Source: Escherichia phage vB_EcoS_fTaEco03. From it: a DNA stretch of 41,972 nucleotides. The stretch is from the sequence record MT711528.1; one strand, written 5' to 3'. The notes beneath the pieces were generated by a model. The model saw only the letters and a list, made by a program, of their open reading frames with translations, was not told the DNA's origin and searched no databases. Both the position numbers and the translations under genes were made by a program. Shown here piece after piece: positions 4,367 through 38,464 of this stretch; position 1 is the stretch's first letter; each line of letters opens with the position of its first letter.

Positions 4367-4406
4367 TTATTCCAGTTATTCCACTCAATTGTAAATGTTG
4401 GAATAA
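4367..4406. promoter_or_regulatory. TTATTCCA repeat array (two direct copies 4367-4374, 4376-4383 plus inverted TGGAATAA 4399-4406)
   Basis: Read directly; a second TGGAATAA copy lies at 5182-5189 upstream of another TTGACA; candidate regulator binding sites. Confidence 0.4.
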
Positions 4407-4421
4407 ACTATTCGAATAGTT
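4406..4421. promoter_or_regulatory. Perfect 16-bp palindrome AACTATTCGAATAGTT abutting -35
   Basis: Self-complementary 16-mer read directly; overlaps first base of TTGACT. Confidence 0.5.
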
Positions 4422-4448
4422 GACTTTTCACCAAAAATGTGCTAAGCT
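4420..4448 (+). promoter_or_regulatory. Sigma70-like promoter (TTGACT - 17 bp - TGcTAAGCT extended -10)
   Basis: -35 TTGACT 4420-4425, -10 TAAGCT 4443-4448 with upstream TG; homologous copy at 34949-34977. Confidence 0.55.
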
Positions 4449-4451: not shown

Positions 4452-4489
4452 CCTGAGCTTGTGAAGTATGAACAAGCGACCGCGGCGCG
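4452..4489 (+). promoter_or_regulatory. Conserved 38-nt promoter-proximal leader element, copy 1
   Basis: CCTGAGCTTGTGAAGTATGAACAAGCGACCGCGGCGCG identical to 34981-35018; contains hairpin GCTTGT-N9-ACAAGC. Confidence 0.6.
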
Positions 4490-4626
4490 GGCAGGTAACG
4501 GAGCGGGACGTAAGTCCTGAGTGTAGTTACGCTGACGCGTTCGGAAGGGCCATACTCTATTGCTTGTGTAAAAAGTAACTGGTTTACTGAGATTACGCCG
4601 TTTCTATGTTTAAATGATAAGGACTA

Positions 4627-4655
4627 GCGCCCCGCTTTAAGGCGGGGCTTTACTT
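4627..4655 (+). terminator. Terminator-like hairpin inside leader, upstream of spanin genes
   Basis: gccccgcTTTAAGgcggggc then TTTACTT; lies between promoter/leader and first CDS. Confidence 0.5.
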
Positions 4656-4672
4656 ATCGAGAAAGGGGAAAC

Positions 4673-13074: not shown

Positions 13075-13089
13075 TGTTGGTGTAAGTGA

Positions 13090-13226: not shown

Positions 13227-13643
13227 ATGAAACTTTCTGATTTTTATTTCGAAGAGAAAGCACTGGTAGGCAAGAAGATGCCCATTCTGCTGCCAAACGG
13301 CGAAGACTCCGGTGAATGGCTTAACGTTGTAAGTCCCGATGCGGATGTCGCCGTTAAAGCGGGGCGTGCTTTCATTATTGCGTACCGTCGCGGGTTGGCG
13401 CGTTTCGAAGAACTGGAAAAAGCCGCCAAAGAATCCGGCGACTATACTGAATATAACCTGGCTATTAACGAACTGGCGGAAGACCTCAACCGGCAACTCG
13501 CGGCAGAAGTCGTAAACGGCTGGAGCTTTGATGAGCCTTTCTCTAAAGAAGCATTTAACAAATTGCTGGACCAGTTCAAGGCATTAGGCACACAGGTAGC
13601 AGCGTTCCATAACGCTGAGCGCAAAGCATTACAGGAAAAGTAG
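13227..13643 (+). CDS. Tail assembly chaperone (gpG-like)
   Basis: 138 aa acidic protein directly upstream of tape measure; AAGGA RBS; ends GAA AAG TAG at slippery run. Confidence 0.55.
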   Translation: MKLSDFYFEEKALVGKKMPILLPNGEDSGEWLNVVSPDADVAVKAGRAFIIAYRRGLARFEELEKAAKESGDYTEYNLAINELAEDLNRQLAAEVVNGWSFDEPFSKEAFNKLLDQFKALGTQVAAFHNAERKALQEK

Positions 13644-14008
13644 ACGCGCTGTACAGGTTCGCCACCTATGAGTTTGTGGATAAGCATAAAATCAGAGAGT
13701 TTGATTCTATAGCCGACGGACACGAACAGGCGCTTATCGCGATGGGTGTAATCGATAAGAAAAAACGTGCAGCGCGACGGGGTGGGCCAGAATGCCCGCC
13801 CCTTTTTATATCCACCTTCGAGACGTACTGCGACATTAAGTTTACGCGACACGTGCGCGAGGACGCTGTAGTATTGTTCGCAAGAGAATCCGTTACGTGG
13901 CAAGACCTGAAAGCCTATCTCGATGTTACGCAAAAACAGCTTAGCCTGTTCGAGATAGACATTATCATGGGCTTAGAAGCAATCTTTGAAGGTAGAAATC
14001 ATGGCTGA
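13619..14008 (+). CDS. Tail assembly chaperone frameshift extension (gpGT-like C-terminal part)
   Basis: Open -1 frame overlapping end of 13227-13643 and running to tape measure start; no good independent start. Confidence 0.45.
   Translation, partial: AQSITGKVDALYRFATYEFVDKHKIREFDSIADGHEQALIAMGVIDKKKRAARRGGPECPPLFISTFETYCDIKFTRHVREDAVVLFARESVTWQDLKAYLDVTQKQLSLFEIDIIMGLEAIFEGRNHG
13634..13640 (+). other. Putative -1 programmed ribosomal frameshift site (GGAAAAG)
   Basis: A AAG lysine codon just before TAG; the -1 frame is open from 13619 to 14008. Confidence 0.45.
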
Positions 14009-16274
14009 TACCGCTAGCTTGATCGTACGAGTATCATCGACCGGCGTCGATAAAACCACATCACAACTGAACGGGCTTACCAAAGCCGCGGGGGCCGCCG
14101 CCGCTGCCGTTGTCAGTCTGGAAACTGCCAAACAGGTGTTCAGTGCGCTGGTGGACTCCCAGCGCAACTTCGATAAGCTGAACTCCGGCCTCATCACAAT
14201 GACCGGGAGCGCTGAGAACGCGGCTAAGGCTTTCAGCGTCCTGCAACAGTTCGCAAAAGAAACCCCATATGGCCTTAACCAGGCGGTGGAAGGCTTTACT
14301 AAGCTGGTTGCCCTCGGCCTGAACCCAAGCAAAGAGGCGTTAATCTCCTACGGCAACACCGCGGCGGCTATGGGTAAAGACCTTAATCAGATGATTGAGG
14401 CGGTTGCCGACGCCAGTACCTTTGAGTTTGAGCGACTGAAAGAGTTCGGTATCAAGTCTTCCCAACAGGCGGATACCGTTTCGTTCACGTTTCGCGGCGT
14501 AACGACCACGGTTAAAAAGAACTCCGAAGAGATTCAGAAATACCTGCTGAACATAGGCAACACCGATTTCGCCGGAGCGATGGAGACGCGCTCGAAGACC
14601 TTAGACGGTCAGTTATCCAGCCTGGCGGACTCCTTCGACGGCCTTGTTCTTGCGGTAGCGCAATCCGGTTTTGGTGACGCCGTAGGTGAGCAAGCCGCGA
14701 GAGCGGAAGATGCTATCACGGCACTCACCGACGCCATAGCGTCTAATGAGATAGCAGCCACGCTCCAGGATTGGGTGACACTGTTCAATGAATCGTTCAA
14801 GTTTATTTCTGATGCCCTGAATGACCTGGCATACGACACCGAGGACAAATCCGTTGATATGTCAGACTCGCTGGGGGCTATACCTGATGCTATCCGTGAG
14901 TGGTTGCCTGACATTCAGCAGACATTCCACGAGGTTATTGCGTGGTTCCAGCGCATTGACGATTACGCTGTAGCGTTAGGTCAGACCCTTGCTGATGTGT
15001 TTGACCCGAGCAAAACGGCAGCGCTCACATTTAAAAACCTGACCGCAGAGGCTGACGCCGCATACGCCGCCAGCATAAAACGCGCAGCGGCGGAATCCCA
15101 GGCCATTACCGACAGGTCTAAGCAGCGTAAGAAAGAAATTGAGGAACAGCGCAAGCAGTATGACGAGCGCAAGAAGCAAGAAATTGACTTAGCCAGCCTT
15201 GTTAATAAAAAGGGTGGAACTGGCGGCACCGGAAACGCCGACGATAAAGCGGCAAAAGCAGCCGCTAAGAAAGCTGAGCAGTTGCGGAATCAGGCGCAAG
15301 ACTACCTCGACACTTTGGCCCGTCAGAACAACGACGAGTTAAAGGCTATTGACGCGCAGGAACAGCAGAAACTGGCTAAAGCAAAAGAGTTCTACAGCCA
15401 GGGTGCGTTGTCTCTGAAAGAATACGAACAAGCTAAAACAGCTATCGTCCTCGAAGCCGGACAAAAACGACAAGATGAACTGGATAAACGCCAGAAAGAA
15501 GCCCAGGAAAAGCAACAGAAAGGCGACGACTTCATGGCTCAGATTATGGGCCAGAACGCTACTGAGCTTGAGCTTCTCGACATCCAGGAACAGCAGAAAC
15601 TGGCGGTAGCCGATAAGTACCGTGAACAGGGTCTGATTAGCGAGAAGCAGTATCAGGCCGCGCTTAACGCCATCAACGAGCAGTATGCTATGAAGCGCGC
15701 CGACGCAACGGCGACCGCCTTTGGTAATATGGCCTCAAACATTGGGTCTGCGTTGGGCGAGGCTTCAGGTGCGTATAAGGCATTCGCTATCGTACAGGCC
15801 ACTATAGCCACGTACACCGCAGCTATTGAAGCGTATAAGTCAACGGCTGCTATCCCTGTAGTCGGCCCGTTCCTGGCTCCTGTAGCTGCCGCCGCTGCCG
15901 TTGGGGCAGGTATGGCGCAGATTTCCGCTATCAGGTCCGCGCGTGAACAGGGGGGACAGTTATCCGCAGGGCAGGCTTCCACCATCGCAGAACGCGGTAA
16001 ACCAGAAGTCATCATGCCTGCTGGCGCATCTCGTGTTCGCACCGCGCAGCAGATGAAAGAAATTATGGGGCAAAACGGGTCTTCTTCCGGACCGTCTAAT
16101 GTTACCATCGTAAACAACACGAGTTCTCAGATTGGCAACGTATCCACTGAACAAGATGATGAAGGCCGTTTGCGTATCATCATTGAAGAGCAAGTGGCGG
16201 CCTCTTTGCAGAACAGCAACAGTAAGATTAGCAAGGCCCGCAAGGCCACAAGAAACGCGCCGGGGTTCAAATAA
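14001..16274 (+). CDS. Tail tape measure protein
   Basis: ~757 aa, alanine/coiled-coil-rich, after chaperone pair and before distal tail genes; start refined to ATG 14001 (RBS GAAGGTAG). Confidence 0.8.
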   Translation: MADTASLIVRVSSTGVDKTTSQLNGLTKAAGAAAAAVVSLETAKQVFSALVDSQRNFDKLNSGLITMTGSAENAAKAFSVLQQFAKETPYGLNQAVEGFTKLVALGLNPSKEALISYGNTAAAMGKDLNQMIEAVADASTFEFERLKEFGIKSSQQADTVSFTFRGVTTTVKKNSEEIQKYLLNIGNTDFAGAMETRSKTLDGQLSSLADSFDGLVLAVAQSGFGDAVGEQAARAEDAITALTDAIASNEIAATLQDWVTLFNESFKFISDALNDLAYDTEDKSVDMSDSLGAIPDAIREWLPDIQQTFHEVIAWFQRIDDYAVALGQTLADVFDPSKTAALTFKNLTAEADAAYAASIKRAAAESQAITDRSKQRKKEIEEQRKQYDERKKQEIDLASLVNKKGGTGGTGNADDKAAKAAAKKAEQLRNQAQDYLDTLARQNNDELKAIDAQEQQKLAKAKEFYSQGALSLKEYEQAKTAIVLEAGQKRQDELDKRQKEAQEKQQKGDDFMAQIMGQNATELELLDIQEQQKLAVADKYREQGLISEKQYQAALNAINEQYAMKRADATATAFGNMASNIGSALGEASGAYKAFAIVQATIATYTAAIEAYKSTAAIPVVGPFLAPVAAAAAVGAGMAQISAIRSAREQGGQLSAGQASTIAERGKPEVIMPAGASRVRTAQQMKEIMGQNGSSSGPSNVTIVNNTSSQIGNVSTEQDDEGRLRIIIEEQVAASLQNSNSKISKARKATRNAPGFK

Positions 16275-16774
16275 TGAGCGACTTATATTTCCCACGTAGC
16301 CTTAAGCCAATTGTATCGAAAGGCTACTCAATGACCAGACGTAACAACGTCTGGAGTGTAGATTTAGCTGGTGGTGGTGTACGTCAGGGGCGCGACACGT
16401 ATTACGACGTGTTCCCGATAAGCGTAACCCTGCTCACATCGGCGCTGGGGCGGCAAGCGTTTCTGTCGTTCCTTGAGAAAGTAGATGGCGGTGCGTCAAG
16501 TTTCTGGATGGCGCACGACTTCGGCATGGGTATTGAGGATTATCAGGTAACCATTACGTCCACTATCGCCGAGTCCACCGAAGACGGGATTAACTGGACA
16601 ATCACCTTCACGGCAACCGCTGAGAAATCGCCGTTCCAGGACCTTGAGAACCAGTGCCTTGTTAACAATCTGCCGGATTTGTATGGTTGTTACGGGGACT
16701 GTCTGGGTAGTTTCCTTAAAGCCTACGGAACCGCGCAATCAACGTTTCCACGAATTTGGGACCCGATGCAATGA
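16274..16774 (+). CDS. Distal tail / minor tail protein
   Basis: 166 aa; ATGA overlap with tape measure stop. Confidence 0.5.
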   Translation: MSDLYFPRSLKPIVSKGYSMTRRNNVWSVDLAGGGVRQGRDTYYDVFPISVTLLTSALGRQAFLSFLEKVDGGASSFWMAHDFGMGIEDYQVTITSTIAESTEDGINWTITFTATAEKSPFQDLENQCLVNNLPDLYGCYGDCLGSFLKAYGTAQSTFPRIWDPMQ

Positions 16775-17286
16775 GTCAGGAATCAGTAGAAGCTGCCTAT
16801 CGCCGTAAGTTGGCATCAAATCCAGACGGCGAGATGGACTACATCACGTTGCAAATCAGCCACCCGTTGCTGTCGAAGACGTACTATCTTGTGCGCGGGC
16901 TGCAGGAACTTACGGCGACACTGGAAACCGGCGAAACTATCACATTCGAACCCACCCCGATGGAAGCGTCGGGGGCCGCTAACAACAGTGATATGGACCA
17001 GACTACCACGTTTACTCTACCGGATATTATCAATCAACTGGATGATGAGATGGATAAAATCCCGATGAGTAACACCGAGTTGCCGAAATTCGTCTTCCGC
17101 CGTTATGTCAGTACCGACCTGTCTTATCCGGCGGACGGCCCGGTCGTGTACGAGTTACAGGCTATCAACCAGGAGAAAGGCGAGTTCTCCGCAGATGTCG
17201 GTACACCTATGCTGAACCAACGGAGCACTGGTATACTGATGACACCTAAAGAGATACCGTTATTGCGCGGCCTGTTGACCACATGA
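16771..17286 (+). CDS. Minor tail protein
   Basis: Start refined to ATG 16771 overlapping previous TGA. Confidence 0.5.
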   Translation: MSQESVEAAYRRKLASNPDGEMDYITLQISHPLLSKTYYLVRGLQELTATLETGETITFEPTPMEASGAANNSDMDQTTTFTLPDIINQLDDEMDKIPMSNTELPKFVFRRYVSTDLSYPADGPVVYELQAINQEKGEFSADVGTPMLNQRSTGILMTPKEIPLLRGLLTT

Positions 17287-17648
17287 ATATTAACGACTAC
17301 ACGGGAATACCTTACGACTTTCGCAAACGTAATTGCTGGCACCATGTGCGCATTGTCCGCGCGGATGCCGGGTTAGAAACCCCGGCGTTCGACGTTACAA
17401 GCCCAACGGCAATTAACGACGCGTTTGACGAAGGCCACCGCAACACGAAGGGGCTTACGAAAATTGATAAGCCTGAAAACTTCTGTGCGGTGCTTATGGG
17501 GTATCGCCGAGGCGGTCGTATTGTGTGGCACGCGGGAGTTTACTTCGACGGGATGGTTAGCCATTGCGAGCTTGCCTCACGTCAAGTACGGCTTGACAGG
17601 CTGGCGGACCTCAGAGACACGTACACGGAGATTGAATTTTGGCGATAA
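17283..17648 (+). CDS. Tail assembly protein (small, Cys/His-containing)
   Basis: 121 aa; overlapping stop/start with neighbours. Confidence 0.45.
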   Translation: MNINDYTGIPYDFRKRNCWHHVRIVRADAGLETPAFDVTSPTAINDAFDEGHRNTKGLTKIDKPENFCAVLMGYRRGGRIVWHAGVYFDGMVSHCELASRQVRLDRLADLRDTYTEIEFWR

Positions 17649-20152
17649 TCCTGCACTACACGCGAAACGCTGATGGCGCTTTCGACCGTACAAAACACGT
17701 CGGGATGCCGATGGAGTTTGTCGTTAACCGTATCCCGGACGGCGTGCCAGTGCGCGTCTACCTCGGCGAAATTGGTGATGATACCGACGTAACTGACGAC
17801 TTCGACGCACTCAAAGACGAATACGCCGTGTACCACATTATAGAGGGTGCTGGTAGCGGGGCGCTTGGTGCTGTTAGTAAGGTGTTCGGTTTTATCCTTA
17901 AGCCAATCGCTAAGTTGTTTGGTCTGAACATGTCCGCAAACGCCAACTATACGGCGACTAACAACCAGACAACATCTCCAAATAATAGCCTCACAGACCG
18001 CTCAAACAAACCACGCCCTTACGAGCGCTCCTATGACATCTGCGGGACTGTGCAGACAATCCCTAATGACCTGATGCAGACGTATAAGGCGTTCAACTCC
18101 ACTGGTGCTTTGCTGGAGTATTCGTACTATGACGCAGGGCGCGGACATCTGCATATTGAGGCTGATGGCGTCACAGAGGGCGACACCCTGATAAGCGACA
18201 TCACAGGTTCCTCTGTTGCCGTATACGCGCCGTATACGTCACCGAACAACACCACATCGCCGCAACTACAAATCGGCGACGTCATCGACCAGAAACTCTA
18301 TGTGACGTACTCTAACGACGACGTTGACGGTATTGTACTGAAAGCGCCAAACGACATTGGAGCTAACCCAAGCGCCGACGGCACAGCTAAACGTATTTCA
18401 AACACCGGCTACATTTATGACCCGTCAGGGGACTCTGCTTTTTCTGAGTTTCTTAGCGTCGGGGATGTCGCGGTTCTGAGCAACTTCGACGTTGCCGATG
18501 TGACTAACCTGAATGGTTCGTTTGAGGTTTTATACGTTGACGACTTCGAAGTGAGATTAGCCGTAAACGGCGCGTCTAACTGGGCAGCGTTGACCAGCGG
18601 GCAAACGTACGCCCTAACAGAGCGTTCAGATACGTTTATCGGCCCGAGCGACACCTATGACGTATCCCTTACAGACTGGTATTACATGGTGCGCGGAGAA
18701 GTTGACCGGGTGCTTGCTAACGTCGCGGGGCAGAACGGCCTCTACAAATACGACGGCGGCTATAACCGCACCAGCGTAACCGTAGAACTCCAGTACCAGA
18801 TGATTGACTCTCGGCGCAACCCATTGAGCGATATTTACACAGTACAGGCTACAATTACCGGTAATAGCACGGATTACGTCGGTACGTCTATCTACGGGCA
18901 ATTGCCTACTGCATCGCGTTTCCGCGCCCGTATGCGCCGTATAACGAATTTTGATAAGGACTACAACGGTACAGTAAGCGACGAGATAACCTTCATCAAC
19001 CTGTACGGGCAGTCGCTGGACACAACCCCACACTACGGCAACCGAACTACCGTGCATTGCGCACGTAAACAGACGCCGCGTGCCGCCAGTATCGACAACC
19101 CAGAACTGCGCATGATTGCGACCGAGATGTGCTACAAATATCTGGGTAATGGGGTATTCGACCCAGTAATGACGCCTAATACACAGGCGGTGCAGTCGCT
19201 AATCAGACTGGCGCGTGACCCGGCGGTTGGTAATCTGGAGCTGACAACGGCAAACATGGACAAGTTACTCGCCGTGCAGGAAGAGATTGAATCTTATTTT
19301 GGCAGCGAATTAGCCGGGCAATTCTGCTACACGTTCGACGACTACGACACGACGATGCAGGACATTGTTCAGACCATAGCTGAAGCCGTGTTCTGTACTG
19401 CGTACCGTAAAGGCGCGGACATTATGCTGCGTTTCGACCGTCCGGTTGCAGGGCCTGAAATGGTGTTCACCCACCGTAGTAAGACGACCGGTACGGAGAA
19501 ATGGACCCGCACGTTCAACGATTCTACGACCTACGATAGCCTGTCGTTCTCGTACATCGACCCGGATACGAACGTACAGGAAACGATTTATATCCCGGAA
19601 GAACTCGGTGCAAACACTGAGGAGTACGAATCGAAGGGCGTGCGCAACTATCAGCAGGCGTACTGGCTGGCATGGCGTCGCTACCAGCGCAATGCGTTAA
19701 GTAAAGTTGTCGTAGAGTTCGAAGCTACCGAAGAGGGGGCACTCGCTACACCTGGCGGCGTAATCAGCGTGGTTAAAGGCTCACGCATCGCGCCGCAGGA
19801 TGGTTATGTTGTTGCCGTTAACGGGCTTACGCTTACGCTGTCTCAGCCAGTTACGTTTACCCCCGGAGACGACCACTCCATCATCCTCAAGAAGCGCGAT
19901 GGCTCTGTGCAGAGTATCTCGGTTATCAAAGGAAGCCACGACCGCGAGGTGATTATGCTCTCCGCGCCGGAAGAAGCAATCTACACGGGGAATAGCGCGC
20001 TAAAAACTGAGTTTTCATTCGGCAACGAAGCAAGGCATAATGCTCAGAAGATAGTTGTTTCTTCAATCGACCCGGGCGACGACCGCACGGTCAAGATTAC
20101 TGGCTACAACTATGACGACGGATTCTATAAATACGACGGCGTCGCGCCATAA
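17639..20152 (+). CDS. Tail tip / central tail fibre protein (gpJ-like)
   Basis: 837 aa ORF after small tail genes; track start is TTG 17639 (GGAG 8 nt upstream); alternative ATG 17705. Confidence 0.55.
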   Translation: MAIILHYTRNADGAFDRTKHVGMPMEFVVNRIPDGVPVRVYLGEIGDDTDVTDDFDALKDEYAVYHIIEGAGSGALGAVSKVFGFILKPIAKLFGLNMSANANYTATNNQTTSPNNSLTDRSNKPRPYERSYDICGTVQTIPNDLMQTYKAFNSTGALLEYSYYDAGRGHLHIEADGVTEGDTLISDITGSSVAVYAPYTSPNNTTSPQLQIGDVIDQKLYVTYSNDDVDGIVLKAPNDIGANPSADGTAKRISNTGYIYDPSGDSAFSEFLSVGDVAVLSNFDVADVTNLNGSFEVLYVDDFEVRLAVNGASNWAALTSGQTYALTERSDTFIGPSDTYDVSLTDWYYMVRGEVDRVLANVAGQNGLYKYDGGYNRTSVTVELQYQMIDSRRNPLSDIYTVQATITGNSTDYVGTSIYGQLPTASRFRARMRRITNFDKDYNGTVSDEITFINLYGQSLDTTPHYGNRTTVHCARKQTPRAASIDNPELRMIATEMCYKYLGNGVFDPVMTPNTQAVQSLIRLARDPAVGNLELTTANMDKLLAVQEEIESYFGSELAGQFCYTFDDYDTTMQDIVQTIAEAVFCTAYRKGADIMLRFDRPVAGPEMVFTHRSKTTGTEKWTRTFNDSTTYDSLSFSYIDPDTNVQETIYIPEELGANTEEYESKGVRNYQQAYWLAWRRYQRNALSKVVVEFEATEEGALATPGGVISVVKGSRIAPQDGYVVAVNGLTLTLSQPVTFTPGDDHSIILKKRDGSVQSISVIKGSHDREVIMLSAPEEAIYTGNSALKTEFSFGNEARHNAQKIVVSSIDPGDDRTVKITGYNYDDGFYKYDGVAP

Positions 20153-20206
20153 GGCAGCGGTTTCTCCGATGGATTCAGCAATGGTTTTAATTAAAGAGGA
20201 CTCTAT

Positions 20207-23161
20207 ATGTCAAGCGGATGTGGTGACGTTTTAAGCCTGGCGGATTTACAGACCGCCAAGAAGCACCAGATTTTTGAAGCCGAGGTTATCACGGGTAAAT
20301 CCGGCGGAGTAGCCGGGGGCGCAGATATTGATTACGCGACAAACCAGGTTACAGGGCAGACCCAGAAGACACTACCTGCCGTGTTGCGTGACGCTGGTTT
20401 TAAACTGGCAGATTTTGATTTCACGTCAGGCGGTACACTATCCGCTAACGACCGAAACACCGCAGTTTTGTGGCCGTCGTCCTCTGGTGGCGATGGGGAT
20501 TGGTACCATTGGTTGGGCGCTCTGCCAAAAACTATCCCGGCGTCATCTTCTCCGCAGTCCACCGGTGGCGTGGCAGATGGGGCGTGGCAGCCTGTCGGGT
20601 CGGTCATACTGCGGCAGCAAATATCTGATGTAAACGGTGCAATTCTGTACCCAGATTTACATGTGGCGCGATGGAAGGACGAATACGACCCGCGCGCATG
20701 GGGCGCCGTGGGCGACGGCGTAACTGATGATACTCAATCTATTTTTAATGTATTAGCAGCTTCCCACAACAATTGGATTATAGACGGCAGGGGCTTGACT
20801 TATAAAGTTTCCCAATTACCTGACATTAGTAAATTTAAGAATGCTGCATTCGTTTACGAGCGCGTAGCTGGGCAACCGCTTACTTATGTAGCTGATGGCT
20901 TCTTTAACAGCTCACTAACTAAGGTGACGGATACCCCGTTCTACAACGCATGGACGCAGGATAAAACTTTCGTCTACGACAATGTTATTTACGCTCCCTT
21001 TATGGCAGGCGAACGACATGGCGTTCAAAACTTACATGTAGCTTGGGTTCGCTCTGGTGACGACGGGCAGACTTGGTCAATGCCTGAGTGGTTGACCCCA
21101 ATCCATGCTGACTATAATGCTAGTGTTTCCGCGGACAGAGTTAACTACCACTGCATGAGCATGGGTACGTGCGGCAACCGATTATATGCAGTTATAGAAA
21201 CCCGCTACTTATCTAATATGCGGATGAAGAAGGCAGAACTTTGGTCACGCCCAATGCCGTATTTTAGACACCCAACCGGCGGAATAACTATTAGTTCTGG
21301 TTCCACTACTGCTACCATTGTTATAGAAAATCACGGCCTAAAAGCAGGAGATGCGGTTAACTTCTCTAATACATCGGCAACTGGCGTATCGGGTAATATG
21401 ACGGTTGCGTCTATAATTAACCGAAATACGTTCACTGTTACGCTCTCAAGCCCGGCGAGTTCCACCATAAACAATGCGGGTGTTACCTGGAACTTCGCAA
21501 CGCGATTCTGGGACAGCCCGTGGGAAATTACCGAATTGCCTGGGGTAGCATACTCCACTAACGCTGATTTGTGTGTCACGGAGACACATAGTTTTGCGGT
21601 TATAGACGATGTTAACTACACTATCGCTGTCGGCTATCACAACGGCGATGTGTCCCCTAGGCGTCTCGGTGTCTTGTATTTTAGTAACGTGTATGACAAT
21701 CCTGGCGTATTCGTTCGTCGCACTGTCGCTCAGGCATACGCTGATAACGCTTCTGAGCCGTGCGTGAAAAGTTATGGTGGTGTGTTATACCTTACCACAC
21801 GCGGCACATTACCTACTTCCCCTGGCTCTACACTGGCGATGAGCACCGATTCTGGGCAAAACTGGAGCTACTTGCGATTTCCGAACAATGTACATCACTC
21901 CAATCTTCCGTTCGCTAAAGTAGGTGACTATCTCTACATCTTTGGTACAGAACGTGCCTTTGGTGAGTGGGAAGGTGGTGAGCAGGACAGCCGCTATGAA
22001 GGTTCGTATCCGAGGACCTTTATGTGCAAAGTTAATGTGTCGTCCTGGCCTTCATCTTTAGATGATGTTCAGTGGTTTAATATTACCGACCAAATATACC
22101 AGGGTCATATCGTTAACTCTGCTGTCGGCGTCGGCTCGGTCTGTGTTAAAGATGGCTGGTTGTACTATATCTTTGGTGGGGAAGACTTCTTCTCTCCCTG
22201 GAGCATAGGGGATAACAGTGCGAAGTTATGGTACAAACATGATGGGCATCCGGCTGACTTATATAGCTACCGGATAAAGATTGAAGACCACCCGTATGTA
22301 TCCCGTGATTTCAAATACGGAGCAACTCCTAACCGTACACTACCTGTCGCCATGGGGGTAGATGGTGTACGTCATGTAGGGGCACCTTTAACATTTGATA
22401 ATGATGTAAGCGTGTACTCACTGCATGTAACGGGGCTGGAATACGATGGTACACAACAGTCCGCCGTGCGTGCACAGTTTGATGGTGATTACGGGCTGAT
22501 TTCAAAAACAGTCCCCACTAAAAACCCATCGGGTCAAAGACTGATAGTTAGCGGTGGTGATGGTGTATCCAGTTCCGATGGTGCGTTGCTGCAACTGTAC
22601 GGGGCAAACCATGCAACGCCTAACAGGGCTATTATGTATGCGTCAGGAGGCTTCTACTCATACAACAATTTTCTTCCTTACTTAGACTCGCAAGTGTCTT
22701 TAGGTTCGGCAGGTAATAGGTGGACTACGGTGTACGCGACCACCGGTACGATAAATACGTCTGATGGTACACTTAAGACGAATAAAGAGGAAATTGAGGG
22801 ACAACTCCTTACCGCATGGGAAGATATACATGTAATATCTTTTAAGTGGCTTGAAAGCCTAGCAATCAAGGGTGACACTGCAAGGATACACTTCGGTGTG
22901 ATAGCCCAAGATGTGCGAGACATCTTGGTCAACCATGGGCTTATGGAGAAAGATTCTACCGATTGTAAATATGCTTTCTTGTGCTACGACCCAATTGAAG
23001 CTGCGTATGATATTGATGAAGATGGCCAGACTGTACAAGTATCCCCTCCCGGCGGCAGATGGGGGGTTAGGGCGGACCAGATGTTCTTCATAGAGATTGC
23101 CTATCAGCGTAAGAAGATGCGCGAGTTCGAGAAGAGGCTGGCAGCACTAGAAGATAAATAA
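20207..23161 (+). CDS. Tailspike with sialidase-like Asp-boxes and C-terminal intramolecular chaperone (putative endosialidase)
   Basis: 984 aa; Asp-box motifs SGDDGQTW and STDSGQNW; C-terminal ~150 aa resembles self-cleaving chaperone domain with S-D-G-T-L-K motif. Confidence 0.65.
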   Translation: MSSGCGDVLSLADLQTAKKHQIFEAEVITGKSGGVAGGADIDYATNQVTGQTQKTLPAVLRDAGFKLADFDFTSGGTLSANDRNTAVLWPSSSGGDGDWYHWLGALPKTIPASSSPQSTGGVADGAWQPVGSVILRQQISDVNGAILYPDLHVARWKDEYDPRAWGAVGDGVTDDTQSIFNVLAASHNNWIIDGRGLTYKVSQLPDISKFKNAAFVYERVAGQPLTYVADGFFNSSLTKVTDTPFYNAWTQDKTFVYDNVIYAPFMAGERHGVQNLHVAWVRSGDDGQTWSMPEWLTPIHADYNASVSADRVNYHCMSMGTCGNRLYAVIETRYLSNMRMKKAELWSRPMPYFRHPTGGITISSGSTTATIVIENHGLKAGDAVNFSNTSATGVSGNMTVASIINRNTFTVTLSSPASSTINNAGVTWNFATRFWDSPWEITELPGVAYSTNADLCVTETHSFAVIDDVNYTIAVGYHNGDVSPRRLGVLYFSNVYDNPGVFVRRTVAQAYADNASEPCVKSYGGVLYLTTRGTLPTSPGSTLAMSTDSGQNWSYLRFPNNVHHSNLPFAKVGDYLYIFGTERAFGEWEGGEQDSRYEGSYPRTFMCKVNVSSWPSSLDDVQWFNITDQIYQGHIVNSAVGVGSVCVKDGWLYYIFGGEDFFSPWSIGDNSAKLWYKHDGHPADLYSYRIKIEDHPYVSRDFKYGATPNRTLPVAMGVDGVRHVGAPLTFDNDVSVYSLHVTGLEYDGTQQSAVRAQFDGDYGLISKTVPTKNPSGQRLIVSGGDGVSSSDGALLQLYGANHATPNRAIMYASGGFYSYNNFLPYLDSQVSLGSAGNRWTTVYATTGTINTSDGTLKTNKEEIEGQLLTAWEDIHVISFKWLESLAIKGDTARIHFGVIAQDVRDILVNHGLMEKDSTDCKYAFLCYDPIEAAYDIDEDGQTVQVSPPGGRWGVRADQMFFIEIAYQRKKMREFEKRLAALEDK

Positions 23162-23165
23162 AACT

Positions 23166-23187
23166 AAGGCCCCAAACGGGGCCTTTT
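23166..23187. terminator. Bidirectional terminator between tailspike and minus-strand replication operon
   Basis: aaggccccAAACggggcctt followed by T-run; near-identical to hairpin at 10640. Confidence 0.7.
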
Positions 23188-25753: not shown

Positions 25754-26038
25754 TTAACTATAATAGCTCGCTATTAGGTCGTCAACCTGTTTAAACGAAC
25801 CAACGATAAAAACATTTGCACCGCGTTTACGCATCCGCTCGTGCTCACGTATCTGGTGCGGGTCTGGCTTCGTGTTTTCGTCTTTCTTAACCTCGACGAA
25901 CCATATGACGCCGCCAGGGAGAATTACCAGCAGGTCGGGAGCGCCGGAGCGCCCCTCGTAGGAGAGCTTACGAACGAGGCCGCCGATGGCCTCGAATCGC
26001 TCTTTTGCGTATTTCTGTATTTTGCCTTCCGGTGTCAT
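25754..26038 (-). CDS. VRR-NUC-like PD-(D/E)xK nuclease
   Basis: ~94 aa from ATG 26038 (track began at TTG 26053); motif PDLLVILPGG...VEVKK. Confidence 0.5.
   Translation of the reverse strand: MTPEGKIQKYAKERFEAIGGLVRKLSYEGRSGAPDLLVILPGGVIWFVEVKKDENTKPDPHQIREHERMRKRGANVFIVGSFKQVDDLIASYYS
25757..25785 (-). promoter_or_regulatory. Promoter family member (TTGACG - 17 - TATAGT) with AATAG-N4-CTATT inverted repeat
   Basis: Minus strand reads TTGACGACCTAATAGCGAGCTATTATAGT. Confidence 0.55.
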
Positions 26039-29257: not shown

Positions 29258-29310
29258 CGTGATTTCTCGCTTTTCAGTTTACTCCGGGAACTGCCCGGCC
29301 AGTGATTAGA

Positions 29311-29339
29311 ACTATAATAGCTAACTATTCGGGTGTCAA
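29311..29339 (-). promoter_or_regulatory. Promoter family member (TTGACA - 17 - TATAGT) with AATAG-N4-CTATT inverted repeat
   Basis: Minus strand reads TTGACACCCGAATAGTTAGCTATTATAGT. Confidence 0.55.
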
Positions 29340-29343
29340 CACT

Positions 29344-31634: not shown

Positions 31635-31665
31635 TTGTTTCTCTCCTCTCGTTTGGTATGGGCTA

Positions 31666-31694
31666 ACTATAATAGCGAACTATTCACTTGTCAA
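31666..31694 (-). promoter_or_regulatory. Promoter family member (TTGACA - 17 - TATAGT) with AATAG-N4-CTATT inverted repeat
   Basis: Minus strand reads TTGACAAGTGAATAGTTCGCTATTATAGT; divergent from HTH regulator gene. Confidence 0.6.
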
Positions 31695-31758
31695 TGGGCT
31701 TTTCTAAAATAATTAATATGGTACTATTCACATATCAACTGACTAAGGAGTAATTGGC

Positions 31759-34428: not shown

Positions 34429-34662
34429 CTAGCGTTGGGGTTTCTTTTGTCTACGCACCGCATTAACCCACTCTCCTTCGCTACGGTAAAAACTGCAATC
34501 AAGGATATCCTCTATAGAAAATTTAACTATTTTAGTGGGTCCACAAAAGTTATAAGGGAAAAGTTCTACATAACACCCATCGTCGGTTATATTTGACGCA
34601 ATCTTGAAATAATATTTAATGCTGCCGTCTTCGCGGAAGCTACAACCCATACGCCCAATCAT
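34429..34662 (-). CDS. Hypothetical protein (77 aa)
   Basis: ORF between AlpA-like gene and primase; ATGA overlap upstream. Confidence 0.4.
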   Translation of the reverse strand: MIGRMGCSFREDGSIKYYFKIASNITDDGCYVELFPYNFCGPTKIVKFSIEDILDCSFYRSEGEWVNAVRRQKKPQR

Positions 34663-34841
34663 TTCACGTTCTCCTTAATCCATGCTTCAACTTTATTACG
34701 GTCGAATGTTCCTGGTAAACGGCGACCCATAACCTTAATACAACAATCCGGGAATTTACCACTGCGTAACCAGTTATTAATTGTCTGACGTGTCACCCCA
34801 ATACGCTCGGCTACTTCATTCTGGGTCATGTAATGTTGCAT
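34659..34841 (-). CDS. AlpA-like HTH DNA-binding protein
   Basis: Start refined to ATG 34841 (AGGAG RBS); sequence VAERIGVTRQTINNWLRSGKFP resembles AlpA/Xis-type HTH. Confidence 0.55.
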   Translation of the reverse strand: MQHYMTQNEVAERIGVTRQTINNWLRSGKFPDCCIKVMGRRLPGTFDRNKVEAWIKENVK

Positions 34842-34872
34842 TTTTAAATCTCCTGTTTGTTTGGTGAAGCCA

Positions 34873-34901
34873 AGTATAGGATAGCGGGAATGTAAAAGCA
34901 A
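34873..34901 (-). promoter_or_regulatory. Promoter for leftward early operon (TTGCTT - 17 - TATACT)
   Basis: Read on minus strand upstream of AlpA-like gene. Confidence 0.5.
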
Positions 34902-34948
34902 CCAAAACACCACACAAAGTTACTAAGATACAAAAGATGCTACTAGTA

Positions 34949-34977
34949 TTGACTTTTACTAAGAAATATGGTAAGCT
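34949..34977 (+). promoter_or_regulatory. Sigma70-like promoter (TTGACT - 17 - TGgTAAGCT), twin of 4420-4448
   Basis: Same -35, spacer length and extended -10 as promoter at 4420. Confidence 0.55.
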
Positions 34978-34980
34978 CAG

Positions 34981-35018
34981 CCTGAGCTTGTGAAGTATGA
35001 ACAAGCGACCGCGGCGCG
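34981..35018 (+). promoter_or_regulatory. Conserved 38-nt promoter-proximal leader element, copy 2
   Basis: Identical 38-mer to 4452-4489; downstream blocks TCTATTG and TTACTGA also shared. Confidence 0.6.
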
Positions 35019-35163
35019 CGGCAGGCGAAACGAGCACGTGTAACGTGTGGAGTGAGGCTCGCTGGCGCGTTTGGGAGGCCCAAAGTCTATTGTAATTCCC
35101 GCCTAATTATCTAAGTTACTGATTTGCCGTAGGTTAGAACCGCCAGCTCACTCACTCACTCTT

Positions 35164-35178
35164 GGTGCCTTCGGCACC
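35164..35178 (+). other. Stable hairpin GGTGCC-TTCG-GCACC in leader
   Basis: Perfect 5-6 bp stem with TTCG tetraloop, preceded by (CTCA)n at 35147-35161. Confidence 0.4.
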
Positions 35179-35245
35179 ACGTTCGTTTCGTTTCGCTCGC
35201 TACCCCCTTAAACGAAAGAATCACAACGGCAACGTAACTAATCTC

Positions 35246-35274
35246 TTGCACACCCCAACATAATAGGATACTAT
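35246..35274 (+). promoter_or_regulatory. Promoter family member (TTGCAC - 17 - TACTAT) with AATAG-N4-CTATT inverted repeat
   Basis: CTTGCACACCCCAACATAATAGGATACTATTCAC upstream of gene 35309. Confidence 0.55.
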
Positions 35275-35308
35275 TCACTTATCGAAACGAGACAGAGGAG
35301 TGAGGGTT

Positions 35309-35500
35309 ATGTTTAAACGTGGTCAGTTGGTTAAATGCGCCGACGATAAACACGGCGTAATTGAATTAAAATCTGCTTTATTTCCAGGAAAGTACGTAGT
35401 TACCGTGCAAAATGTGAGAGGAGTAAATTCACAAATATACGTAGCGGAGGAGAACTTAAAACTCATCGGCAACAATTTTAAATTTAAAGGGGTGAAGTGA
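35309..35500 (+). CDS. Early protein, hypothetical (63 aa)
   Basis: ATG 35309 with GAGGAG RBS; ATGA overlap with next gene. Confidence 0.5.
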   Translation: MFKRGQLVKCADDKHGVIELKSALFPGKYVVTVQNVRGVNSQIYVAEENLKLIGNNFKFKGVK

Positions 35501-35700
35501 TGGAAGAATTATTTGAAGAACTGAAACATCATGATTTCGAGGAAATATATTTCGTAGCTGAACGCTACGAGGTGCATCTGGCGGACGGTATAACGGTTAT
35601 TACATCTACCAGCGAGCGAATGTTAAATAGCTTACGAGCAATACGAACGGCATCGAATCATGATGCTTGTGCCGACGACTCTGAGGGAGGTTGCCGTTAA
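35497..35700 (+). CDS. Early protein, hypothetical (67 aa)
   Basis: Translationally coupled chain of small ORFs. Confidence 0.45.
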   Translation: MMEELFEELKHHDFEEIYFVAERYEVHLADGITVITSTSERMLNSLRAIRTASNHDACADDSEGGCR

Positions 35701-35879
35701 TGCGAATCCGTATAACTGACCGCAGGCTTATCCGTATAACTGACCGCAGGCTTATAGATTTCTGTATCTCGGTAGGTGATGTTTTTCCGGCGTTCAGCAT
35801 CAACCATTATGGTTTTATGATTGAGTACAAAGGGTCGTTATTGTTCGTGTATCGGGATGAATGTGAGGTTCTGGTATGA
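35700..35879 (+). CDS. Small ORF containing 24-bp tandem repeat (repeated RITDRRLI peptide)
   Basis: ATG overlaps previous TAA; spans direct repeats 35706-35753. Confidence 0.3.
   Translation: MRIRITDRRLIRITDRRLIDFCISVGDVFPAFSINHYGFMIEYKGSLLFVYRDECEVLV
35706..35753. repeat. Perfect 24-bp tandem direct repeat x2 (ATCCGTATAACTGACCGCAGGCTT)
   Basis: Two identical adjacent copies read directly. Confidence 0.85.
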
Positions 35880-36532: not shown

Positions 36533-36539
36533 AATTTAC

Positions 36540-36568
36540 TTGCACACTAAGATAGAATAGGCTACTAT
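36540..36568 (+). promoter_or_regulatory. Promoter family member (TTGCAC - 17 - TACTAT) with AATAG-N4-CTATT inverted repeat
   Basis: ACTTGCACACTAAGATAGAATAGGCTACTATTCAT. Confidence 0.5.
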
Positions 36569-36598
36569 TCATTTACACAAGCGAGAGGAGAGACAGAG

Positions 36599-37686: not shown

Positions 37687-37976
37687 GCCTGGCAACTGAC
37701 ATCCTGAAACGAAGCGGCCTTGCGCCGCTGTCGCCGAGAGCTAAAACACAGATATACAAGCGCCGCCGTAACGCGCTGTACCCTGAGATTCAGGCCCGAC
37801 GCAAAGCTATCCGCGCCTGTGGCTTCCAGAACGGGAAGGCCGTGAATCTCGGTGAGTTCAAAACACAGGAACGTGCAGCTATAGCTAATCGGTTATTTAA
37901 TTACTGGAAATCGCTTGGATACGATGATATTCCGACGAAACCACAGAGACGACAATACATCTGGAGACATAAATAA
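37683..37976 (+). CDS. Basic protein (97 aa), hypothetical
   Basis: K/R-rich; its last 110 nt fall in the duplicated 299-bp unit. Confidence 0.45.
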   Translation: MSLATDILKRSGLAPLSPRAKTQIYKRRRNALYPEIQARRKAIRACGFQNGKAVNLGEFKTQERAAIANRLFNYWKSLGYDDIPTKPQRRQYIWRHK

Positions 37977-38165
37977 ACCGTTATTAAGATAATTCCTACC
38001 CGTGGTATCCTCCAGTTACTGCATACTTAATACGCACCTGGAGGATTCATCTTGGATAAATTTACTGAAACAGTGACGGGGTGGCTTCTCGCTGCCGCAC
38101 TAGCCGGAGGGGTTATCGGACTACGACAACATAAGTCCGTTATTTCTGGCCCTATCGACGGATTC
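37867..38165. repeat. 299-bp tandem direct repeat, copy 1
   Basis: Identical to 38166-38464 at every position compared. Confidence 0.9.
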
Positions 38166-38183
38166 AGGAACGTGCAGCTATAG
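38052..38183 (+). pseudogene. Truncated holin 5' fragment created by the duplication (43 codons)
   Basis: Same start context as holin gene at 38351; frame ends at TAG 38181-38183 after the repeat junction. Confidence 0.4.
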
Positions 38184-38464
38184 CTAATCGGTTATTTAAT
38201 TACTGGAAATCGCTTGGATACGATGATATTCCGACGAAACCACAGAGACGACAATACATCTGGAGACATAAATAAACCGTTATTAAGATAATTCCTACCC
38301 GTGGTATCCTCCAGTTACTGCATACTTAATACGCACCTGGAGGATTCATCTTGGATAAATTTACTGAAACAGTGACGGGGTGGCTTCTCGCTGCCGCACT
38401 AGCCGGAGGGGTTATCGGACTACGACAACATAAGTCCGTTATTTCTGGCCCTATCGACGGATTC
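38166..38464. repeat. 299-bp tandem direct repeat, copy 2
   Basis: Identical to 37867-38165. Confidence 0.9.

Follow-up and report, generated by a model that had tools for sequence, protein, structure and literature searches.

The occurrence of one promoter and leader segment ahead of two groups of rightward (plus-strand) genes in Escherichia phage vB_EcoS_fTaEco03 poses the question of whether the two copies form a shared functional element and, if so, what such an element might do. The window analysed here is the whole stretch of 41,972 nucleotides (MT711528.1), a complete Kagunavirus genome (Guernseyvirinae) that is 99% identical to phage vB_EcoS_fTaEco01. A repeat search of the window found a direct repeat of 70 nt linking 4420-4489 (copy 1) and 34949-35018 (copy 2) at 87% identity. 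A 39-mer taken from 34980 has two sites, one exact at 34980-35018 and one with a single mismatch at 4451-4489, and it was matched in 0/100 dinucleotide shuffles of the window. As the mismatch in copy 1 falls on the first base, the identical block is 34981-35018, exactly the 38-nt segment reported in a first-pass annotation of copy 2, and its twin is 4452-4489. The homology does not stop with that segment however, and continues past 35018 to ~35140 in copy 2 and to ~4610 in copy 1, ~190 nt overall, with indels and compensatory changes beyond the identical block.

Our interpretation, which we hold with a probability of roughly 85%, is that the repeat is a Guernseyvirinae-specific module coupling a promoter to a structured 5' leader RNA, with copy 1 ancestral and copy 2 acquired by recombination. 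Each copy is a host-type promoter and, after it, a folded RNA of ~110 bases with which a long untranslated leader before rightward genes begins. Of the phages isolated for therapy and food biocontrol of E. coli and Salmonella, Guernseyvirinae (Kagunavirus, Jerseyvirus) are among the most frequent, and the leader would control entry into the operon for their most abundant virion proteins.

Predicted promoters and their surroundings

The promoters, the structured domains and the neighbouring DNA elements are as follows.

4406..4421, unstranded: perfect 16-bp palindrome AACTATTCGAATAGTT, overlapping the first 2 bases of the copy 1 -35 hexamer (direct reading)
4420..4448, plus strand: copy 1 promoter, TTGACT, 17-nt spacer and TGcTAAGCT with an extended -10 (repeat and direct reading)
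4455..4565, plus strand: copy 1 structured 5' domain (covariance model, 130.5 bits, E = 5e-36; covariation; single-sequence fold)
34949..34977, plus strand: copy 2 promoter, TTGACT, 17-nt spacer and TGgTAAGCT (repeat and direct reading)
34984..35095, plus strand: copy 2 structured 5' domain (covariance model, 84.9 bits, E = 2e-22; fold)
35245..35281, plus strand: another conserved promoter, unlike that of the copies, TTGCAC-17-TACTAT, flanks also conserved (repeat families I1, I2 and I6)

The promoter that the first-pass annotation placed in both copies is supported by the shared TTGACT-17-TGnTAAGCT with its extended -10. Neither copy was listed by a simple promoter scan of the window because TAAGCT fits TATAAT at 3/6 positions only, and the promoter status is therefore one that we infer from the sequence. 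The site also carries a predicted 'host promoter' in the record of phage fBC-Eco01, where its depositors had placed it independently. The elements suggest a strong extended -10 promoter for host sigma-70 that would start transcription 0-2 nt before the terminal hairpin P1, with predicted transcription starts at G4455 (+/- 1-2 nt) for copy 1 and G34984 for copy 2. The palindrome AACTATTCGAATAGTT, centred at about -41.5 relative to the predicted copy 1 start, may be an operator; it has a single site in the window even when up to 3 mismatches are allowed, and it is kept in Kagunavirus-type relatives, while T102-type relatives retain GAATA-N3-TATTC only.

The copies do head both of the plus-strand units described as major, although a third plus-strand unit exists, the tail genes from 13227, which have their own promoter region unlike copies 1 and 2. 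Likewise copy 2 is in leader position at the head of the early/lysis region but does not stand directly before its first gene, as the promoter at 35245-35281 intervenes. This promoter lies between the hairpin at 35163-35179 and the first gene ATG at 35309, outside the twin-repeat family, and belongs to a TTGCAC-17-TACTAT family of four copies at 13083-13119 (minus strand), 31714-31734, 35245-35281 and 36536-36578 (all plus strand).

A covarying RNA fold

The elements of the fold, all on the plus strand and identified with the covariance model and by folding, are given below.

4457-4462 with 4472-4477, plus strand: copy 1 P1
4480-4482 with 4542-4544, plus strand: copy 1 P2a
4484-4489 with 4536-4541, plus strand: copy 1 P2b
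4492-4499 with 4526-4534, plus strand: copy 1 P3
4504-4509 with 4514-4519, plus strand: copy 1 P4
4545-4565, plus strand: copy 1 conserved tail AAGGGCCAUACUCUAUUGCUU
34986-34991 with 35001-35006, plus strand: copy 2 P1
35009-35074, plus strand: copy 2 long hairpin P2-P4
35075-35095, plus strand: copy 2 tail GAGGCCCAAAGUCUAUUGUAA

The domain consists of the 5' hairpin P1, 1-2 unpaired bases, the long imperfect hairpin P2-P4 and a single-stranded tail, with a GC-rich hairpin ~70 nt further 3' of the tail. In both copies the tail is made up of GGAAGGGCC, 4-6 nt and CUAUUG, and is invariant and single-stranded. The base of P2 is also conserved (CCG / C-bulge / GGYGCG paired with CGCRUU / CGG) and the distal P3-P4 is free to vary or be lost: P3 and P4 of copy 2 differ from those of copy 1 through compensatory changes, the architecture is unchanged in T102-type Jerseyviruses despite another P1 sequence and other P3/P4, and phage SLMP1 carries a natural deletion of P3/P4 that retains P1, the P2 base and the tail.

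In order to assess covariation we used 64 covariance-model matches across relatives, which represent 43 distinct sequences. Among the distinct sequences 92.3% of cells are paired and double changes occur at 12 pairs, and the covariation score is 0.304 compared with 0.105 in shuffles (0/500 reach 0.304) and at most 0.079 in slid controls. A long-range P2b pair is CG 22, UA 18 and AU 2 times in the alignment of relatives and was recovered unaided by RNAalifold from a plain MAFFT alignment. The covariation is specific to the plus-strand RNA. The fold of this strand is better than that of the minus strand by 8-13 kcal/mol, and on the opposite strand two conserved G-U pairs would become A-C. Thermodynamic stability alone is not significant (z from -1 to -2), so that the case for an RNA structure rests on covariation. 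A covariance-model search of the window returned 2 sites only, copy 1 and copy 2, and this, together with conservation across Kagunavirus and Jerseyvirus and the plus-strand covariation, supports the earlier view of a shared functional element rather than a coincidence.

Several further pairings were considered and rejected. A P0 pairing of CCU with AGG, first suggested by RNAalifold, involves variable 5' bases (CCU, ACU, CAU) that probably precede the start; a pseudoknot between P1 loop and tail (AGUAUG with CAUACU) would require a tail position that varies freely and a P1 loop that differs in other variants; and the P3/P4 internal loop could form the tandem G-A pairs of a K-turn but is without the canonical 3-nt bulge followed by GA. 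P2b has a weak local competitor in the hairpin CCGC-GGY-GCGG, for which one compensatory change is seen (in the variant L018); this hints at a folding switch and is too thin to claim as one.

No match to the window was found in Rfam 15 at the gathering threshold, and in E-value mode both leaders and those of T102 and SLMP1 gave matches only at E ~0.8 or worse. ARAGORN found no tRNA or tmRNA in the window. From its sequence the leader domain is a new RNA family known only from the subfamily Guernseyvirinae, at the least a well-supported one that is amenable to simple experiments. A loose pattern scan of viral contigs gave mostly chance matches; the contigs that scored with the model were Guernseyvirinae only, and an 18-bit group proved to be coding sequence. 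A metagenome scan likewise returned only Guernseyvirinae-like contigs of ~44 kb.

Leader 3' parts, distribution and the origin of copy 2

Downstream of the structured domain the two leaders are composed as follows.

4566..4628, plus strand: copy 1 leader 3' half, A/U-rich, with a conserved ...AUUACGCCGU... motif (alignment; conserved in 179/191 records)
4629..4657, plus strand: copy 1 leader-terminal hairpin GCCCCGCT-TTAA-GGCGGGGC followed by TTTACTTAT (terminator scan, compensatory variants)
35100..35146, plus strand: copy 2 leader 3' part, homologous to the resident early-right leader (local alignment, z = 7-8)
35147..35161, plus strand: (CTCA)3 and CTC, a C-rich, G-poor microsatellite (direct reading)
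35163..35195, plus strand: hairpin TGGTGCC-TTC-GGCACCA followed by an interrupted T tract CGTTCGTTTCGTTTCG (terminator scan)

Among relatives from Kagunavirus and Jerseyvirus, the two genera compared, the copy 1 leader is present at 95-100% identity in 179/191 phage records. Salmonella phage S100 shares the leader with the window at 99% identity and its flanking genes at 69-77%, so that near-identity of the leader is maintained between genera whose genes are ~70% identical. By this comparison the leader is far more conserved than the surrounding coding DNA and is the most conserved non-coding stretch found here. We regard copy 1 as probably ancestral, the original leader of the spanin/scaffold/capsid operon. 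Copy 2 is found in ~40/180 phage records, about a quarter of genomes, and is by sequence comparison a recombinant: a promoter and 5' domain of the copy 1 type took the place of the 5' part of the resident early-right leader. Its 3' part aligns locally with the early-right leaders of S100, T102 and fBC-Eco01 at z = 7-8 against shuffles, and the joint lies near TATCTAAG. The capsid leader shows no significant sign of shared descent with the resident early-right leader (z <=2); it is the copy 2 3' part alone that matches the leaders of the early-right type.

One test set for the shared element had been whether the copies were a recent duplication absent from relatives, and the outcome is only half favourable, as the two copies differ, with copy 1 in essentially all of them and copy 2 a minority recombinant that has nevertheless diversified. 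Copy 2 is split into several variants in which base pairing is retained, and it is therefore no fresh neutral duplication. Some copy 2 variants bear the central domain of a copy 1 variant (L010 compared with L023 and L038), which indicates ongoing exchange, and the promoter and RNA together behave as a movable cassette.

The hairpins that end the two leaders are not alike in strength. The copy 1 hairpin (4629-4648) ends 24 nt upstream of the ATG at 4673, from which the genes run in the order i-spanin, o-spanin, scaffold and major capsid, and its stem exists in compensatory variants (GCCCTGC/GCAGGGC, GCCCGGC/GCCGGGC and GCCCGAC/GTCGGGC). From its sequence it looks like an intrinsic terminator and is more convincing than the hairpin at 35163-35179. 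In T102-type leaders the U tract is very poor (UUAGCGUAU), and the hairpin there may therefore not terminate at all. In copy 2 the (CTCA)n tract reported previously is present as three full units at 35147-35158 followed by CTC, and one relative has six units. The GGTGCC-TTCG-GCACC tetraloop described after it is not what the sequence forms, because cUUCGg would throw the stem out of register; the hairpin at 35163-35179 has instead a 7-bp stem and a UUC triloop. It passes a loose terminator scan (5 T in 8, the tract being CGTTCGTT) and would be at best a weak intrinsic terminator.

Possible functions of the leader

As to what the leader does, we tentatively propose that it acts in cis by helping RNA polymerase pass the leader terminator. 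The nascent 5' domain would act on its own transcription complex, either alone like the put RNA of phage HK022 or with a partner factor, and polymerase from the leader promoter would then pass both the terminator at the leader end and the partial terminators within the operons, with a fraction of transcripts halting at the hairpin to give a short leader RNA of ~195 nt. Copy 1 is the sole promoter-like site before the capsid operon, and in S100, Ivi and fBC-Eco01 leftward genes lie between the leader and the upstream operon, so that the capsid mRNA must begin at the leader promoter and cross the hairpin. A role in cis is also supported because the promoter and 5' domain moved together to a second operon head, because the rightward units hold further terminator-like hairpins (at 36292, 41313, 2767, 4334 and 6870) and because the layout parallels putL and putR. 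The cis-acting control that the first-pass annotation argued for is plausible on sequence grounds.

Other observations speak against read-through. The start, the 3' ends and the read-through itself are all ones that we infer. A strongly processive antiterminator would run past the operon-end terminators at 10640 and 4334, which are ordinary 8-bp hairpins, into antisense territory, and since copy 2 is followed by another promoter the early genes may not depend on it. Inspection of the alignments found no conserved mutually exclusive antiterminator/terminator pairing of the riboswitch or classical attenuator kind; a short G+C-rich complementarity between P4 and the terminator arm shows no covariation because P4 varies while the terminator does not. 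A known antiterminator protein is not encoded: no Q-type, N-type or other antiterminator was found among 20 small rightward-strand proteins compared with PHROGs, whose matches were every one of unknown function, or among 10 proteins, taken from both strands of the early and regulatory regions, compared with Pfam, searches that a novel antiterminator could escape.

The closest known parallel is with putL and putR of HK022, nascent RNAs that make E. coli RNA polymerase terminator-resistant (PMC9378689). These are two similar RNAs of ~70 nt downstream of two phage promoters, each folded into two stem-loops that together make a V, with conserved internal loops or a triplex, and they bind the zinc-binding domain of the polymerase beta' subunit and suppress pausing and termination without phage proteins (PMC9378689). 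Here too there are two related structured RNAs (4455-4565 and 34984-35095), each after a promoter and upstream of terminator-like hairpins, and the leader element begins, as putL does, at the 5' end of the transcript. Again as in put, two stem-loops are joined by 1-2 unpaired bases, in this case P1 and P2-P4 with covariation support, and no dedicated antiterminator protein is recognisable in the genome. The likeness is by analogy only, because there is no homology of sequence or structure and the covariance model, run with filters off over the HK022 immunity region, gave at most 6 bits and nothing at the put sites. The leader element is also longer (~90-110 nt), its second stem has a dispensable distal part followed by an invariant single-stranded tail, and its phage is virulent rather than lambdoid. 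We consider it doubtful that the 5' domain is a second, independently evolved, factor-independent put-like antiterminator, portable with its own promoter in virulent Guernseyvirinae. If the leader alters either the polymerase or the fate of the transcript it would be a compact natural expression module, and could add an example of RNA-based elongation control, for which HK022 put is almost the sole phage case.

A rather unlikely alternative to read-through is that the leader governs mRNA stability, processing or translation, with P1 shielding the transcript from 5'-end-dependent decay, the long hairpin serving as a processing or protein-binding site, and the GC hairpin by the ribosome-binding site forming a protective capsid-mRNA 5' end after cleavage of the A/U-rich spacer. 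Stem-loops at the 5' end stabilise E. coli mRNAs such as ompA, and P1 of either sequence type sits at 0-2 nt from the predicted 5' end, even though the two types have unlike P1 sequences. The terminal hairpin directly before the Shine-Dalgarno covaries, the U tract is weak in T102-type phages and the operon codes for the most abundant virion proteins. The conserved structure and sequence of the leader however go well beyond what a protective hairpin requires, as in the invariant tail and the P2 base with its bulge and tandem G-U pairs, and at copy 2 another promoter separates leader from genes. Since SLMP1 is viable with P3/P4 of the long helix deleted, processing of the RNase III type of a ~22-bp helix cannot be essential.

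It is slightly less likely again that the product is a short RNA, in which case the copies would be small-RNA genes of ~195-215 nt from promoter to terminal hairpin whose RNA acts in trans or titrates a protein, through the conserved tail or a protein-binding core on host or phage targets, and the capsid operon would be fed by leak-through. Promoter, structured RNA and GC-rich hairpin do form discrete units, at the early-right position the genes have a separate promoter after the hairpin, and relatives have there a different ~260-nt RNA that ends in a strong terminator. The tail, invariant without covariation, would fit a seed or binding site, and a second copy would raise the dose. Against a short RNA, complementary stretches of at least 11-12 nt elsewhere in the phage genome are about as frequent as expected by chance, the leader has no similarity to any E. 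coli genome, the hairpins are without the long U tail typical of Hfq-dependent small RNAs, and in those genomes that have leftward genes upstream, copy 1 must serve as the capsid mRNA 5' UTR as well.

It is highly improbable that the element is a transcription-primed replication origin, in which the promoter and a G-rich transcript would prime DNA synthesis through a persistent R-loop as in T4 oriF/oriG or ColE1. Copy 2 is at the switch from leftward replication genes to rightward genes and at both the cumulative GC skew minimum and the lowest G+C content of the genome, but the skew simply tracks gene orientation, the universal copy 1 is inside the morphogenesis region and most relatives are without copy 2. 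Covariation that keeps intramolecular helices, G-U pairs included, points moreover to a folded RNA rather than an RNA-DNA hybrid. Least credible of all is that the leader has no function of its own, being either a promoter region that was recently duplicated or gene-converted or the coding DNA of a small protein: copy 2 is indeed a recombinant in a minority of genomes with ongoing exchange between variants, and a frame starting at the P1-loop ATG is 36 aa long in the commonest copy 1 variant (38 aa in the window by hand translation), but the helices are kept through compensatory changes and indels in a leader far more conserved than nearby coding DNA, and a small coding ORF was rejected as neither frame nor product is conserved among relatives, the frame running to 9-48 aa with unrelated sequences after frameshifts and its ATG missing in 18/64 distinct leaders.

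Returning to the cis-acting read-through that we tentatively prefer, other antitermination systems offer partial likenesses. The nut sites at which lambda N acts consist of boxA and boxB, and rrn-type leaders of boxB-boxA-boxC. As with nut there are twin RNA sites near two operon starts, each with a hairpin and a conserved single-stranded motif, but the tail is not boxA, the would-be boxA 'GC' positions vary and the hairpin loops are not conserved; boxA GCTCTTTAACAA at up to 3 mismatches has no site in either leader (window, 42 compared with 36.6 expected). ConAn of Gram-positive conjugative elements is a processive antitermination RNA that needs a protein partner (PMC8191782). B. subtilis EAR, ConAn and the leader are all structured RNAs at the start of a long operon with internal terminators, although the first two belong to other taxa and homology to the leader was not detected (no Rfam match).

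In the late leader of lambda, the promoter PR' gives rise to the 194-nt '6S' RNA, which ends at the terminator tR', and Q is the antiterminator. Copy 1 similarly has a constitutive-looking sigma-70 promoter, a ~200-nt leader and the terminator-like hairpin at 4629-4648, and is followed by lysis-type (spanin) and morphogenesis genes. Unlike lambda, no Q-family protein was found by Pfam or PHROGs, and the conserved feature is a covarying folded RNA rather than a DNA binding site with a promoter-proximal pause; T102-type leaders have no equivalent of the weak -10-like AAGTAT (NANNAT) that lies at +10 to +15, in the P1 loop of Kagunavirus-type leaders only.

Genome layout and the repeated promoter-leader pair

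The window is the complete genome of a virulent siphovirus with three rightward and two leftward gene blocks. Its 34600-35600 region matches 181 phage records and shares 99.4% identity with Escherichia phage vB_EcoS_fTaEco01 (Guernseyvirinae, Kagunavirus); gene names were transferred from the records of fTaEco01 and fBC-Eco01.

35309 to the window end and on to 4330, plus strand: small genes, holins and endolysin, terminase, portal, head morphogenesis
4673-10635, plus strand: spanins, scaffold, major capsid, connectors, tail tube
13227-23161, plus strand: tail genes
Two leftward blocks, minus strand: replication and nucleotide metabolism genes

Two tandem repeats were also seen in the first rightward block. 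One is a perfect 299-bp duplication (37866-38164 and 38165-38463) between an ORF ending at 37976 and the holin gene; as the corresponding genes of fTaEco01, the closest relative, are only 76 nt apart, it is either specific to this genome or an assembly artefact. The other, a perfect 24-bp repeat (35706-35729 and 35730-35753) within a small ORF (35691-35879), duplicates eight codons in frame.

The 38-nt segment that the first-pass annotation described as repeated is so: the 39-mer from 34980 has just two occurrences, an exact one at 34980-35018 and one at 4451-4489 that differs at the first base, and no shuffled sequence matched it. A repeat search returned a 70-nt pair (4420-4489, copy 1, and 34949-35018, copy 2) with 87% identity, which is real and well beyond chance, and in pairwise alignment the similarity runs with indels from the promoter to about +190, beyond the length first reported. 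The repeat is an RNA structure. The promoter claimed for each copy is likewise predicted here, with TTGACT, 17 nt and TGnTAAGCT in both. A consensus promoter scan lists neither copy because TAAGCT matches TATAAT at just 3/6 positions; our call draws on a -35 hexamer that is nearly perfect, on the spacing, on the extended -10 TG and on fBC-Eco01, where this site was annotated independently by computation. Copy 1 is numbered from a predicted +1 at G4455.

A 16-bp perfect palindrome, AACTATTCGAATAGTT (4406-4421), overlaps the copy 1 -35 hexamer, centred at about -41.5 from the predicted start; it occurs once in the genome, is kept in Kagunavirus-type relatives and could serve one of the small HTH proteins as operator. 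The copy 1 leader also contains, just 5' of its terminal hairpin, a weaker promoter-like TTTACT-16-TATGTT (4581-4609), which the fBC-Eco01 record labels 'host promoter 2' and which T102-type leaders (those of a divergent Jerseyvirus group) do not keep.

Downstream of copy 2, the reported (CTCA) tract was found at 35147-35158, followed by CTC. It ranges from 3 to 6 units among variants, and such a C-rich (CUCA)n stretch could conceivably be a Rho loading site in this leader. The hairpin reported after it is present (35163-35179), but its supposed UUCG tetraloop was rejected, since a 7-bp stem closes a UUC triloop. Copy 2 does lie upstream of the first gene (35309), but another conserved promoter (35245-35281) intervenes.

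Structure and distribution of the leader RNA

The copy 1 leader has the following parts.

4457-4462 with 4472-4477: helix P1
After P1: GA, then a long hairpin
4480-4482 with 4542-4544: helix P2a, CCG with CGG, then a bulged C
4484-4489 with 4536-4541: helix P2b, GGCGCG with CGCGUU
4492-4499 with 4526-4534: helix P3, then a purine-rich internal loop
4504-4509 with 4514-4519: helix P4
4545-4565: single-stranded tail, AAGGGCCAUACUCUAUUGCUU
3' of the tail: A/U-rich stretch with a conserved ...GCCGU... motif
4629-4648: hairpin plus TTTACTTAT, ending 24 nt upstream of the spanin ATG

Relatives were collected by scanning viral contigs with the exact core (42 loci), by a protein-anchored scan using the downstream spanin (48 loci), from whole genomes and by a metagenome scan. 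RNAalifold on MAFFT alignments proposed P1 and the long-range helix, and the central region occurs in at least seven variants differing by compensatory changes, those of P4 including GGGAC-GUAA-GUCCU, CGGAC-GUUAA-GUCCG, GGUGC-GUUA-GCACU, CACGU-GUAA-CGUGU, ACGUC-UCGA-CGUGU and GGGGC-GUUA-GCCCU. A covariance model with an explicit structure, built from 32 sequences, hit exactly two sites in the window, 4455-4565 (130.5 bits) and 34984-35095 (84.9 bits), two in phage Ivi and a single site in each of fBC-Eco01, S100 and T102, with no further match in these five genomes at E up to 10. In the model-derived alignment (64 hits, 43 distinct), which is fitted to the model, 92.3% of cells pair, double changes occur in 12 of 28 pairs and the covariation score is 0.304, compared with 0.105 for shuffles (0/500 reach 0.304) and at most 0.079 when partners are slid 1-3 columns. 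The key long-range pair also varies in the unfitted MAFFT alignment (CG 15, UA 15, AU 2). The plus-strand fold is better than the minus-strand fold by 8-13 kcal/mol and two G-U pairs are conserved, which together indicate a feature of the plus-strand RNA; folding stability by itself is unremarkable (z from -1 to -2).

In T102 and other divergent Jerseyviruses P1 reads ACGCU-UUC-AGCGU and P3/P4 likewise differ, with ACCGCGGUGCGG...GCAUUCGGAAGGGCC...CUAUUGC retained, while Salmonella phage SLMP1 (L046, 1479-1535), an isolated phage, carries a natural deletion of ~40 nt that removes P3/P4, so that GGAC closes P2b. What stays constant is therefore a core in which P1, the base of P2 and the single-stranded tail join; the distal hairpin need only pair, or be missing. 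The sequences bordering the SLMP1 deletion, GGACGC / GAACGC, form a short direct repeat. P2b has a potential competitor in a weak local hairpin, CCGC-GGY-GCGG, which shows one compensatory change and is possibly a folding intermediate.

The first-pass annotation had allowed for a recent duplication lacking conservation in relatives. Copy 1 proved conserved: of the 191 phage records across both genera that match its 253-nt leader, 179 are 95-100% identical to it. Copy 2 is detectable in just ~40 of 180. The genes around the leader are 69-77% identical between the window and S100. Genomes without copy 2 (fBC-Eco01, S100, T102) have in its place a strong terminator preceded by a consensus sigma-70 promoter and a 5' leader of unrelated sequence; the downstream promoter is the same. 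The 3' part of the copy 2 leader (from ~35100) matches these resident early-right leaders significantly (z = 7-8) and the capsid leader does not (z <=2). Copy 2 is thus a chimera, its promoter and 5' domain having moved as one module, and this promoter-RNA module is also selected as a unit at the second operon head. In some copy 2 variants the central domain is the one carried by a rare copy 1 variant (L010 vs L023, L038 and L044 in our collection), so exchange between the sites continues; exchange, instead of absolute constraint, probably accounts for some of the identity over 38 nt, and the P1 loop sequence varies among other variants. Within reach of pattern-based retrieval, no members were found outside Guernseyvirinae-like contigs in viral, metagenome and E. 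coli collections.

Possible roles of the leader

At the level of RNA, the evidence supports the claim of a shared functional element. In S100, Ivi and fBC-Eco01 the genes immediately upstream of the leader are leftward and no second promoter-like site serves the capsid operon; it is close to shown that the capsid mRNA there must start at the copy 1 promoter, carry the leader RNA at its 5' end and cross the GC-rich hairpin. Further terminator-like hairpins lie within both rightward units (36292, 41313, 2767, 4334 and 6870), and in function the element comes nearest to the lambda PR'-6S-tR' late leader and the HK022 put RNAs (PMC9378689). Together with the transfer of the module, these points favour an action in cis, by which the leader RNA would influence elongation and termination, and to this plausible reading we give a probability of roughly 35%. 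Against it, there is no homology to put (the covariance model had no match at the put sites located in the HK022 immunity region), terminators at operon ends are ordinary, the U tracts of T102-type leader hairpins are poor and a promoter sits downstream of copy 2.

It is less likely that the leader stabilises or processes the transcript, and slightly less likely again that it yields a terminated small RNA acting in trans; complementarity of the leader to the rest of the phage was not above chance. An R-loop origin is very improbable, and an element that is functionless or coding even more so, the ORF opened by the P1-loop ATG not being conserved.

As regards partners for an action in cis, no Q-type or other known antiterminator was found among 20 small rightward-strand proteins (PHROGs) or 10 candidates (Pfam), nor was a conserved alternative pairing of leader with terminator. 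A boxA motif search rejected the tail as boxA, and no Rfam family, tRNA or tmRNA matched. The element thus constitutes an RNA family that is new and narrowly distributed; in architecture it is like known phage leader/antiterminator arrangements, yet it belongs to none of them.

Other promoters and terminators

Three further repeated families were seen in the window.

13083-13119, minus strand; 31714-31734, 35245-35281 and 36536-36578, plus strand: promoter family TTGCAC-17-TACTAT
25756-25786, 29310-29340 and 31665-31695, minus strand: promoter-like family GTTGAC(G/A)...17...TATAGT
4326-4355, 10632-10661 and 23158-23187: terminators AAGGCCCC-NNNN-GGGGCCTT

TTGCAC-17-TACTAT copies are up to 95% identical with conserved flanks of ~37 nt, and in fBC-Eco01 the same sites are annotated 'phage promoters' by PHIRE; judged from sequence, such long conservation suggests a bound regulator. 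The minus-strand family stands ahead of leftward replication genes. The near-identical terminators, with flanking A and T runs, close the three rightward blocks, and those at 10640 and 23166 read as such on both strands. Ahead of the tail operon (window 13120-13226), an extended -10-like site of its own, TGATAGAAT (~13124-13132), stands back to back with a minus-strand class B promoter; 3' of this site is a leader of ~85 nt with a long GCGCC...GGCGC hairpin.

In most Guernseyvirinae the resident early-right unit consists of a consensus sigma-70 promoter, an untranslated hairpin RNA of ~260 nt and a strong terminator, then a separate promoter, and appears to be a second family, as yet uncharacterised, of small RNAs or leaders. 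Examples from the collected relatives are as follows.

L097, 39063-39375: resident early-right unit
L095, 41075-41360: resident early-right unit
L002, 37473-37740: resident early-right unit
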